A stretch of 64,000 nt of DNA, from NCBI RefSeq assembly GCF_055900595.2, contig NZ_CM148325.1, one strand, 5' to 3'. The position numbers and the translations under genes were made by a program. The notes below the pieces were generated by a model. It saw nothing but the letters and a program-made list of their open reading frames with translations. It was not told the origin of the DNA and ran no database searches. Below, in pieces: positions 7,696-56,499 of the stretch (its first letter is position 1; each line of letters begins with the position of its first letter).

Positions 7696-7724
7696 AAAAA
7701 AAACCCGCTGATTAAGCGGGTTTT
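7696..7724. terminator. Bidirectional rho-independent terminator between convergent crcB and cspE
   Basis: aaaaaaacccgctgattaagcgggtttt hairpin with flanking A-run and T-run. Confidence 0.75.
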
Positions 7725-7743
7725 GAATTCTTGCTGACGTATC

Positions 7744-7953
7744 TTACAGAGCGATTACGTTTGCAGCAGAAGGGCCTTTGGCACCGTTAGTGATTTCGAA
7801 CTCTACGCGCTGACCTTCAGCAAGAGTTTTAAAACCATTAGTCTGGATTGCAGAGAAGTGTACGAACACGTCTTTGCTGCCGTCTTCCGGAGTAATGAAA
7901 CCGAATCCTTTGGACTCATTAAACCACTTAACGTTACCTTTAATCTTAGACAT
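7744..7953 (-). CDS. cspE: Cold-shock-domain protein CspE
   Basis: Supplied ORF is 97 aa from TTG; the internal ATG at 7951-7953 gives the 69-aa [33 protein letters not shown]... CspE sequence with RNP1 motif KGFGFI. Confidence 0.95.
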
Positions 7954-8127
7954 CAAAATTACCTTTACATGAAAAATAGACACAAATGCTGTGTCGGTTA
8001 CCAGTACACCAATTGTGGTACGCTTTGTCCAGTGCAACTTTACTAAAAAGTGATAAAAGTCGCGTTATTTTTGATGTTAATTATTTTAGTCATTGATTTT
8101 AAAGAAGTTACTAAAATTTCATTTGTC

Positions 8128-21049: not shown

Positions 21050-21196
21050 TCCTCTGATTTACAAAAGACGCTAATTCGTCTTCCATAAACTATGACGATT
21101 AAGATTTATACATAATGCGCTGCATTGAGGAATTCCCTGAATGTGACGCAAATCACTTCAAAGAGTGAGCAACAGTCAGTATCATCATGTGAGTTA

Positions 21197-21230
21197 AACC
21201 CTCGCCGCCTGACGGTGAGGGTTTTCTTTT
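21197..21230 (+). terminator. Putative rho-independent terminator between rna and rnk
   Basis: aaccctcgccgcctgacggtgagggtt hairpin followed by a T-rich run. Confidence 0.55.
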
Positions 21231-21278
21231 GGGTATGTTTATCTGCGACACTCGCAGTACCGACGACATGGAGTAAAA

Positions 21279-53358: not shown

Positions 53359-53397
53359 TGCTAACGTCAGATTGTTGACAAAGTGCGCGTCGTTCAT

Positions 53398-53496
53398 GCC
53401 GGATGCGGCGTGAACGCCTTATCCGGCCTACAAAAATCTTGCCAATTCAATATATTGCAGGATAGTGTAGGCCTGATAAGCGTAGCGCATCAGGCA
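53398..53496. repeat. REP/BIME pair (inverted REP units) between fepA and entD
   Basis: gccggatgcggcgtgaacgccttatccggcctac ... gtaggcctgataagcgtagcgcatcaggca: canonical enterobacterial REP sequence. Confidence 0.85.
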
Positions 53497-53523
53497 GTTT
53501 TGCGTTTGTCATCAGTCTCTAAT

Positions 53524-54153
53524 ATGGTCGACATGAAAACTACGCATACCTCCCTCCCCTTTGCAGGACATACGCTGCATTTTGTTGAGTTCGATCCAGT
53601 GAGTTTTCGCGAGCAGGATTTACTCTGGCTGCCACACTACGCACAACTGCAACACGCTGGACGTAAACGTAAAACAGAGCATTTAGCCGGACGGATCGCT
53701 GCTGTTTACGCCTTGCGGGAATATGGCTATAAATGTGTGCCCGCAATCGGCGAGCTACGCCAACCTGTGTGGCCTGCGGAGGTATACGGCAGTATTAGCC
53801 ACTGCGGGACTACGGCATTAGCCGTGGTATCTCGTCAACCGATTGGCATTGATATCGAAGAGATTTTCTCTGTACAAACCGCAAGAGAATTGACAGACAA
53901 CATTATTACACCAGCAGAACACGAGCGACTCGCAGAATGCGGTTTAACCTTTTCTCTGGCGCTGACACTGGCATTTTCCGCCAAAGAGAGCGCATTTAAG
54001 GCAAGCAAGATACAGGCCGCTCAAGGTTTTCTGGATTATCAGATAATTAGCTGGAATAAACAGCAGATCATCATTCGACTAGAGGATGAGCAGTTTGCTG
54101 TGCACTGGCAGATAAAAGAAAAAATAGTCATAACGCTGTGCCAACACGATTAA
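53524..54153 (+). CDS. entD: 4'-phosphopantetheinyl transferase for EntB/EntF
   Basis: Trimmed to MVDMKTTHTSLPFAGHTLHF... (209 aa); the supplied ORF extends upstream across the REP. Confidence 0.9.
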   Translation: MVDMKTTHTSLPFAGHTLHFVEFDPVSFREQDLLWLPHYAQLQHAGRKRKTEHLAGRIAAVYALREYGYKCVPAIGELRQPVWPAEVYGSISHCGTTALAVVSRQPIGIDIEEIFSVQTARELTDNIITPAEHERLAECGLTFSLALTLAFSAKESAFKASKIQAAQGFLDYQIISWNKQQIIIRLEDEQFAVHWQIKEKIVITLCQHD

Positions 54154-54274
54154 TTGACAACATCTGGTACGATTCGCCCGCAGCCATCACTGACCACGGG
54201 CGAAAGTGTAAAGCAGGTGCCTTACCATCCTGACCTGACAACCGGATATGCGGGGATTGCTCCCCGCACAACGG

Positions 54275-54427
54275 CTACTTCTTCGGTTCGTAAGCGAGAA
54301 CAGCCTTAAACTCAATATTACGTTCCTTTACGGTAAACTCACACAGCGAGTCGCCGACCAGAAGCGTAAATCCCAGCACTGTCAAACATAGCACTATGAC
54401 CGCCACAAGGGCATATTTCGTCAGCAT
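54275..54427 (-). CDS. hokE: Hok/Gef-family type I toxin (50 aa), copy 1
   Basis: [50 protein letters not shown]: single TM helix, conserved Hok C-terminus; the in-frame upstream extension (to 54571) is treated as leader, not Hok. Confidence 0.88.
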
Positions 54428-54776
54428 GTTTATATTGCCTCCATGCGAAGAAGGGACTACCATCCAAATTGTCTGGTTTGGAGTGGCGGCCCCAGGGTTG
54501 ATAGAAATATCTCCTGGGGCTTCATCTTTCCAGACCTCAGAGTAAACCTGAAACCGGAAAGCTTCAGGCACCCGCCGTTATCTTACCCTTCCTTAGCAAA
54601 ATAGCTGTTTATTTATACAGTAAATCCTGTTCCGGACTTTTCATTGGTATTATCGCCCATGCCAGTTAAACGAAATCGCCCGCAGCCATTGCTGACCGCG
54701 GGCGAAAATGTAAAGCAGGTGCCTTACCATCCTGACCTGACAACCGGATATGCGGGGATTACTCCCCGCACAGCGG

Positions 54777-54929
54777 CTACTTCTTCGGTTCGTAAGCGAG
54801 AACAGCCTTAAACTCAATATTACGTTCCTTCACCGTAAACTCACACAGCGAGTCTCCGACCAGAAGCGTAAATCCCAGCACCGTCAAACACTGCACTATG
54901 ACTGCCACAAGGGCATATTTCGTCAGCAT
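54777..54929 (-). CDS. Hok/Gef-family type I toxin (50 aa), copy 2 (paralogue from the tandem duplication)
   Basis: [50 protein letters not shown]: differs from copy 1 by L13Q plus synonymous changes. Confidence 0.85.
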
Positions 54930-55371
54930 GTTTATATTGCCTCCATGCGAAGAAGGGACTACCATCCAAATTGTTCGGGTTTGGAGTGGCAGCCCCAGGG
55001 TTGATAGAAATATCTCCTGGGGCTTCATCTTTCCAGACCTCAGAGTAAACCTGAAACCGGAAAGCTTCAGGCACCCGCAGTCATCTTACCCTTCCTTAGC
55101 AAAATAGCTGTTTATTTATACAGTTGGTCTTATTTCGGACTTCTCACTACGCATTAGATCAACCGAAACTAAGCCAGTTTTTCCTTCGCCCCTCAATCAT
55201 CAAAATTCTCCGCCGCCAGCCAGCTCTGCCATAACTTGGCACATTGCAAAAGTAGCCAAACTTCTTCAGTCACAATCAGTTCACCATCACCAAAAAAAAG
55301 AAACATTCCAGAACTTCCGCATCTCCCCCGGCCGCTCCCACTTCTATACTGAAATGAAAACGCCAACATAA

Positions 55372-56499
<1,128 letters not shown>

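Follow-up and report, generated by a model that had tools for sequence, protein, structure and literature searches.

Two tandem, insertion sequence-free copies of a probable hokE/sokE toxin-antitoxin locus between entD and ybdK of Escherichia coli

The stretch of DNA analyzed here (hereafter the window; 64,000 nucleotides of contig NZ_CM148325.1) carries two short hok reading frames, one behind the other on the minus strand. This arrangement raises the question of whether each copy retains the RNA elements of a hok/sok locus and, if so, where those elements lie: a full leader on the hok mRNA, an antisense Sok RNA on the opposite strand, and an upstream frame equivalent to mok. An earlier reading, made from the sequence only, had answered that each copy keeps its leader together with a Sok region and a mok-like frame, the latter taken to be the open frame that extends hok upstream. 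We find that the stretch very probably consists of two tandem copies, both free of insertion sequences (IS), of the known E. coli hokE/sokE type I toxin-antitoxin locus, a reading based on sequence homology, predicted folds, and conservation; each copy has a full leader and an antisense RNA gene, although neither the antisense RNAs nor the mok frame match the positions given in the earlier reading. The features discussed are collected in Table 1.

Identity and setting of the duplicated locus

The two hok genes are flanked by entD and ybdK, the same neighbors that surround hokE/sokE in strain K-12. They are carried by direct repeats of ∼470 bp each (period 502–503), which are 94–95% identical, contain one hok apiece, and are separated by ∼32 unrelated bases. 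The 3 kb flanks are 100% identical to those of several E. coli isolates, which identifies the window as E. coli DNA.

By sequence, both ORFs belong to the Hok/Gef family of small hydrophobic toxins, the Pfam model HOK_GEF (PF01848, cutoff 22) matching copy 1 with 34.0 bits and copy 2 with 31.6 bits; the NCBIfam Hok and HokA models also matched the Hok proteins of the window, but with scores under their cutoffs. The copy 1 protein is identical to HokE of E. coli O157 (HOKE_ECO57), and the copy 2 protein is a HokE variant with an L13Q change within the membrane helix. Neither is confined to this genome: under the name HokE, the exact copy 1 protein is found on at least 1000 public contigs and the exact copy 2 protein on 179. 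The pattern CTGT-N8-ACAG of a LexA (SOS) box occurs at only two sites in the 64-kb window (chance mean 0.85), both of them upstream of the hok promoters, and hokE/sokE has been listed among LexA-regulated toxin-antitoxin systems (PMC9040746, PMC11951105). Judged from these sequence matches, each of the two loci thus combines the ybdK-entD context with a LexA box at its hok promoter, the pair of traits that marks the hokE subgroup.

The tandem arrangement is not unusual either. We sampled the matching E. coli complete genomes at even spacing, and in about half of them (14 of 30 rows) the entD-ybdK site carried two or three hokE genes, as in the PGAP label "hokE (x2)". This frequency was taken from feature annotations in place of a query with the repeat junction, whose count of tandem genomes we discarded because non-collinear pieces were joined and single-copy genomes also reached 80% coverage. 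Among Hok genes at large, 10% are reported to lie in islets of 2–6 homologs, less than 2 kb apart, that stem from local duplication (bioRxiv 10.1101/2025.08.07.668861). The duplicated hokE/sokE of the window is an ordinary, already known system in a common tandem configuration.

Table 1. Coordinates (positions in the window) and strands of the two hok units, their predicted RNA elements, and the flanking genes
Feature	Position	Strand	Remarks
entD	53383–54153	+	Flanks the hok pair
ybdK	55381–56499	+	Flanks the hok pair
hok CDS, copy 1 (entD-proximal)	54275–54427	−	50 aa; within ORF 54275–54571; Pfam HOK_GEF
hok CDS, copy 2 (ybdK-proximal)	54777–54929	−	50 aa; Pfam HOK_GEF
hok leader, copy 1	54419–54573	−	Rfam RF01794, 83.9 bits, model positions 1–157 of 157
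hok leader, copy 2	54921–55076	−	Rfam RF01794 over full model length, 84.4 bits
hok mRNA, copy 1, predicted full length	54174–54573	−	5′ end from Rfam model start; both ends predicted
hok mRNA, copy 2, predicted full length	54676–55076	−	5′ end 55076; from Rfam, terminator-like site, and fold
LexA (SOS) box, copy 1	54605–54620	−	CTGTATAAATAAACAG; CTGT-N8-ACAG; −47 to −32 from predicted hok mRNA start
LexA box, copy 2	55108–55123	−	CTGTATAAATAAACAG; CTGT-N8-ACAG; upstream of hok copy 2, −47 to −32 from predicted hok mRNA start
Putative hok −10, copy 1	54580–54585	−	TAAGAT, read from sequence; 6 nt before predicted +1
Putative hok −10, copy 2 equivalent	55083–55088	−	TAAGAT, read from sequence
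Sok, copy 1, predicted antisense RNA	54471–54529	+	59 nt; homology to K-12 sokE, fold
Sok, copy 2, predicted antisense RNA	54973–55032	+	60 nt; 60/60 identical to sokE b4835, fold
Sok promoter, copy 1	54435–54463	+	−35 TTGCCT 54435–54440; −10 TACCAT 54458–54463
Sok promoter, copy 2	54937–54965	+	−35 54937–54942; −10 54960–54965
Conserved leader AUG, copy 1	54461–54463	−	36 nt upstream of hok AUG, in frame, inside Sok −10 box
Conserved leader AUG, copy 2	54963–54965	−	−36, in frame with hok

Strand and extent of the antisense RNA

That both hok copies keep a full leader was borne out. The two leaders are near-identical, and a covariance-model search matched the Rfam family RF01794 over its full length in both (E about 1e-17), with scores well clear of the gathering score of 59. 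In a permissive Rfam scan of the locus (E up to 10), we found only these two matches besides chance-level hits to miRNA and caiA models; neither the hok mRNA nor the antisense strand has a model of its own there.

The family RF01794 is, however, named "sok antitoxin", and in both copies it falls on the sense strand of hok. Taken literally, this full-length minus-strand match would make the antitoxin a 157-nt minus-strand RNA coextensive with each leader. We consider this extremely unlikely. The model consensus runs from the 5′-terminal hok mRNA sequence to the hok AUG; at an R1-type plasmid locus, which served as a control, the model again matched the strand that encodes the annotated hok and ended at the hok ATG. 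The known antitoxins, moreover, are of another size and strand, as K-12 sokE is 60 nt long and opposite hokE, and R1 Sok is a 64-nt antisense RNA with a single-stranded 5′ tail and a stem-loop (PMC1635323). Because the control places the model on the hok strand, RF01794 certifies a conserved hok leader and not the strand or extent of the antitoxin. For annotation this means that what the "sok" family locates is the hok leader, on the sense strand; the true Sok is a ∼60-nt subsegment on the opposite strand, and reading the strand and coordinates of RF01794 as those of the antitoxin gene is an error.

The position of Sok is better taken from the curated sokE of K-12 (b4835; NC_000913 607733–607792), which is encoded on the strand opposite hokE with its 5′ end 44 nt upstream of the hokE AUG. 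Its counterpart in copy 2 is identical, and that in copy 1 lacks one base and carries three substitutions, these changes all lying in the first 18 nt. Both RNAs are predicted to fold into a single-stranded 5′ tail, a terminator hairpin (in copy 1, GCCCCAGGG...CCUGGGGC), and then CUUCAUCUUU, with energies of −26.5 kcal/mol (z −2.9) for copy 1 and −27.3 kcal/mol (z −3.2) for copy 2. A YUNR U-turn motif was absent, by eye, from the Sok target loops of both copies (ACCCGAACAA, ACCAGACAA).

Each predicted Sok is preceded by the promoter TTGCCT-17-TACCAT, with the predicted starts (54471 in copy 1) lying 7 nt downstream of the −10 box. These hexamers share RF01794 model columns with GCGCAA and AGGAUA of the R1-type leader, which we take to be the complements of the −35 and −10 of R1 Sok. 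The same promoter, TTGCCT-17-TACCAT, has been listed for the sigma-70 holoenzyme site in the K-12 ybdK/sokE spacer by genomic SELEX (PMC3946193). A generic scan for sigma-70 promoters and intrinsic terminators (54000–55500, threshold 9/12) nevertheless returned no promoter and no Sok terminator, finding only the terminator of hok copy 2. The Sok promoter was missed because it matches 8 of 12 consensus positions, below the threshold, and its support is thus homology rather than hexamer match. We did not count this null result against Sok, because the K-12 promoter itself reaches only 8/12 and the Sok tail has only 4 U in 8 nt. The sequence-only reading had named the lack of a plus-strand promoter as grounds for giving up Sok; we set this test aside, since the generic scan would return such a negative falsely where the homologous sokE promoter is present in both copies.

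The same reading had placed Sok at 54520–54600 and 55020–55100. It was right that both copies have a Sok region on the plus strand, but these intervals are ∼50–70 nt off, away from hok, and cover the 5′ end of the hok mRNA and its promoter. They overlap the 3′ ends of the predicted Sok RNAs by ∼10 nt. Their folds are no better than those of shuffled sequence (z −1.05 and +0.18), the 9/12 scan found no promoter for them, and the curated sokE maps to the copy 2 interval of Table 1 and not to the one proposed.

Support for the strand also comes from related loci. A HokE scan of one genome per species gave 54 loci, and we kept the 50 whose upstream sequence was long enough, drawn from Escherichia, Citrobacter, Klebsiella, Kluyvera, Enterobacter, and related genera. 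The region of the Sok 5′ tail is hypervariable among their leaders, and the hairpin and the tail that follows it are conserved. In all 46 unique leaders of the family, the Sok hairpin had greater stability on the antisense strand than on the mRNA strand (means −17.6 vs. −12.7 kcal/mol), a count that is not an independent-sample statistic, as the family sequences are related. Most members have U.G wobbles in the Sok hairpin, where the mRNA strand would have C.A mismatches instead, and one hairpin pair is UG in 25 of 34 sequences and CG in the other 9. The direction of this bias is the one that a functional antisense terminator would predict. We conclude that, at the sequence level, each hok copy keeps a cis-encoded antisense Sok gene whose transcription is predicted.

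Translation upstream of hok

In both copies the hok frame is open far upstream of the hok start, to a GTG at 54571 in copy 1 (98 aa) and to an ATG at 55028 in copy 2 (83 aa), and the sequence-only reading had taken these extensions for mok. The extensions do exist and are in frame with hok, but they are not equivalent to one another. A 1-nt indel in the Sok-target loop (CAAA-CCAGAC in copy 1, CAAACCCGAAC in copy 2) swaps the frames, and the extensions of copy 1 and copy 2 are therefore different reading frames upstream of it. In copy 1, the counterpart of the ATG at 55028 opens a dead-end ORF of 22 aa (54525–54457), and in copy 2, the counterpart of the GTG at 54571 opens an ORF of 77 aa (55074–54841) that is out of the hok frame. 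Across the 50 related loci of the HokE family, the upstream openness of the hok frame ranges from −15 to −198 nt, and long extensions are not conserved. Nor does an in-frame extension resemble the mok of R1, which starts at A116, 58 nt from the hok start at A174 and out of frame with it, and whose translation is needed only up to the hok initiation region (PMC9841398). That the extensions are mok, with Sok in the two displaced intervals, is accordingly a highly improbable reading. The name mok should be withheld from long open frames upstream of hok; single-base indels shift such frames in the HokE subfamily.

A frame of the R1 type, recognized by a GAGG sequence, a start ∼7 nt further on inside the Sok target, and a long out-of-frame overlap with hok, was not found here. 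By RF01794 columns, hokE carries AAA at the leader position homologous to the AUG that starts R1 mok, and GGGG in place of the GAGG Shine-Dalgarno sequence of R1. In the stretch matching the R1 mok start, no Escherichia hokE has a start codon, and 9 of 52 family leaders have an ATG. The sole start common to both copies in the frame that overlaps hok out of frame is a UUG at −40, and this frame is closed in most other genera. Neither the candidate mok translations (77, 42, and 33 aa) nor an antisense ORF of 84 aa matched an NCBIfam or Pfam family, and a literature search for "mokE" gave nothing relevant. In these loci the mok function is probably not carried by a long overlapping frame.

The best candidate for a mok-equivalent start, as far as the conservation of the leaders goes, is an AUG at −36, at which ribosome entry would more likely fill the role of mok. 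An ATG is present at −32 to −36 in 45 of 52 HokE-family leaders, the remaining 7 having ATA. In 27 loci, which represents the state of most genera, the ORF that it opens is 12 codons long and stops at the UGA of AUGCUGA, overlapping the hok start; in 17 loci, both window copies included, 1-nt or 4-nt insertions bring it into frame with hok. The predicted Sok duplex ends 8 nt upstream of this AUG, inside the ribosome footprint. The AUG has no recognizable Shine-Dalgarno sequence, and its conservation could be partly due to the Sok −10 box that overlaps it.

Predicted working of the two units and likeness to known systems

Each hok unit was folded from its Rfam-defined 5′ end through its terminal hairpin. 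In the minimum free energy structure of the copy 1 mRNA (−165.9 kcal/mol, z −6.4), the 5′ and 3′ ends are paired, the 5′ end GGGUGCCU (54566–54573) with an fbi-like AGGCACCU (54215–54222), and a terminal stem-loop lies at 54174–54203. The copy 2 mRNA (z −5.75) has the same end pairing, with its fbi-like AAGGCACCU at 54717–54725 and a terminator hairpin at 54676–54705, then UUUCGUUU. In both predictions the paired end elements are ∼350 nt apart and the terminal stem-loop comes after them, and a long-range closure of the tac/fbi type is thus predicted for the full-length mRNA of both copies. The GGGUGC and GCACC(C/U) cores of this fold-back are conserved across genera, with flanking pairs that differ by lineage (CCU/AGG in Escherichia, GAGG/CCUC in other genera).

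By homology to R1 and K-12, both units would be expected to be transcribed, processed at the 3′ end, translationally coupled, and toxic. Each would give rise to a hok mRNA of ∼400 nt on the minus strand, from a promoter that is overlapped by the LexA box and would therefore be SOS-inducible; the −35 that pairs with the putative TAAGAT is poor. The pairing of the 5′ end with the fbi-like element near the 3′ end would hold this mRNA translationally closed. On the plus strand, each unit would produce a Sok of ∼60 nt from a promoter situated between the hok Shine-Dalgarno sequence and the leader. On the model of R1, the single-stranded 5′ tail of Sok would pair with the leader hairpin of the 3′-processed mRNA, and the resulting duplex would block ribosome entry upstream of hok and be marked for RNase III.

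Besides scattered substitutions, the differences between the two copies cluster in the Sok 5′ tail and the target loop, and we compared the predicted duplexes of each Sok with both mRNAs. The full duplexes reach −113 and −116 kcal/mol in trans, as against −127 to −128 kcal/mol in cis, and the first 20 nt of Sok give −29 and −33 kcal/mol in trans, as compared with −41 and −44 kcal/mol in cis. Because the trans duplexes stay very stable, cross-protection between the two copies is likely, and by these predictions any insulation would be partial at most. A broader proposal, which we put forward tentatively and would not ourselves bet on, is that the HokE subfamily has exchanged the classical long mok for a minimal start inside the Sok −10 box, and that diverged Sok tails and loops could partly insulate each toxin from the antitoxin of the other copy. 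If so, the 4-nt insertion of Escherichia, which puts the leader AUG in the hok frame, would yield a 62-aa, N-terminally extended Hok isoform.

These loci might also be rightly named and yet be relics, one or both being no longer working modules and their conservation reflecting recent duplication. Chromosomal hok loci are reported to give no post-segregational killing and have been suggested to be inactive, according to the summary of earlier work in bioRxiv 10.1101/2025.08.07.668861, and IS186/IS421 repeatedly disrupts the hokE locus in other strains; in the strain closest to ours by its flanks, an IS421 (IS186 family) follows each hok copy, in the GGGGAGTAATCCC/C hairpin, as in K-12. Within the window itself, L13Q might weaken the copy 2 toxin, and the copy 1 terminator hairpin is without a U-tract. 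However, the hairpins that host IS elsewhere are intact here (54250–54267 and 54752–54769), as are the ORFs, promoters, and fold-back elements of both units. At least one other two-copy strain, RMDEC465, has the same pair of copy types, one with the 1-nt indel and one without it, so the hokE duplication is not brand new, yet every element has been kept. The conservation of the leader and the Sok hairpin across genera, with its strand-specific wobble pairs, also argues against decay, and so does the toxicity on overexpression of 42 of 45 Hok homologs, a survey in which HokE served as a control earlier shown to be toxic (bioRxiv 10.1101/2025.08.07.668861). Loss of function at one or both loci is thus unlikely in our estimation, and we favor two complete hokE/sokE units. 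With two IS-free units, this strain would be a better substrate than K-12 for testing the activity of chromosomal hokE. For biology the analysis adds little that is new, hokE/sokE being a catalogued SOS-regulated locus and a large fraction of E. coli genomes having annotated tandem hokE copies; its main practical value is for annotation.

The closest known system is hokE/sokE of K-12 (b4415/b4835), which occupies the same chromosomal site between ybdK and entD, has the same LexA box sequence, and is identical or nearly so to copy 2 in its leader, Sok promoter, and Sok RNA. It differs from the window in having a single hokE copy with an IS186 18 nt past the stop codon, by which the fbi element and the terminator are lost, whereas the window has two complete units. 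Relative to K-12, the Sok 5′ tail and the target loop are altered in copy 1, and Hok carries the L13Q change in copy 2.

The hok/sok (parB) locus of plasmid R1 shares with the window copies a Hok/Gef toxin, the RF01794 leader, a Sok promoter at the homologous position with a 17-nt spacer, and an antisense RNA of ∼60 nt with a 5′ tail and hairpin like those predicted here. Its tac/fbi-type 5′–3′ fold-back, followed by a terminal hairpin, is likewise predicted for the window mRNAs. Unlike R1 hok/sok, the hokE loci of the window are chromosomal, have a LexA box upstream, and have a role other than plasmid maintenance; their leaders are ∼26 nt shorter. Finally, with a period of ∼502 bp the window fits the description of a two-member Hok islet (bioRxiv 10.1101/2025.08.07.668861); the survey of such islets covered coding sequences, and the present analysis adds the regulatory RNA elements of both members.

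Strand of the Rfam match and antisense reading frames

In both hok copies the match to Rfam RF01794, named 'sok antitoxin (CssrC)', lies on the hok sense strand and ends at the hok AUG, and the same strand and end point were found at the R1-type plasmid control locus (L057; see table). For an annotation pipeline that takes this family literally, the antitoxin would come out on the opposite strand from the real one and at 2.5 times its proper length. The open reading frames antisense to hok are probably spurious calls that arise because hok and sok overlap. Their equivalents in a record from another strain (L001) lie at 1797-2058 and 2299-2557, and in other strains PGAP calls such equivalents frameshifted 'hypothetical protein' pseudogenes; the one product searched, the 84-aa translation of 54750-55004, matched no NCBIfam family.

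Features of the two hok units and the plasmid control locus
Feature	Coordinates	Strand	Source or state
RF01794 match, hok leader copy 1	54419-54573	-	Rfam
RF01794 match, hok leader copy 2	54921-55076	-	Rfam
RF01794 match, R1-type plasmid locus	L057 332-503	+	Rfam
ORFs antisense to hok	54248-54391, 54396-54545, 54750-55004, 54898-55107	+	window
GC-rich hairpin after hok copy 1	54250-54267	-	uninterrupted
GC-rich hairpin after hok copy 2	54752-54769	-	uninterrupted

Other Rfam matches were an ES036 (CssrF) sRNA at 53433-53474 (+), which at 44.4 bits exceeds its gathering score of 37.6 and sits in the 5' part of a mechanically called 256-aa entD ORF (53383-54153; entD is annotated shorter in other records), and, from the whole-window scan, two ordinary E. 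coli features: an rnk leader (124.9 bits, 21125-21233, +) and, at 123 bits, a cspA-type thermoregulator/cold-shock gene region (7696-8054, -).

The hok coding sequence and its 3' hairpin

Codon 13 of hok copy 2 (54891-54893, -) reads CAG rather than CTG, replacing Leu with Gln within the predicted membrane helix, and this variant protein is present on 179 public contigs. Both copies keep the GCUUACGAACC context of the Tyr46 codon, UAC (54285-54295 and 54787-54797, -); according to a preprint, hokE mRNA, like that of hokB, undergoes A-to-I editing by TadA that recodes this Tyr to Cys (bioRxiv 10.1101/2025.08.07.668861). Directly past each stop codon is a GC-rich hairpin, GCGGGGAG(C/T)AATCCCCGC. 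IS186/IS421 is inserted in this hairpin in K-12 (L002, about 4007) and, in strain E200086, after both hokE copies (L058, about 1130-1170 and 3000). The hairpin appears to be a recurrent hot spot for IS insertion, which decapitates the hok 3' UTR.

Leader frames in other genera

Most HokE-family loci outside Escherichia (L008-L055) carry, at -32 relative to hok, a 12-codon leader ORF such as MLVSSLQGGKTC; its UGA and the start of hok overlap in the sequence AUGCUGA. Such an arrangement would couple the two frames compactly, unlike the R1 mok with its 70 codons.
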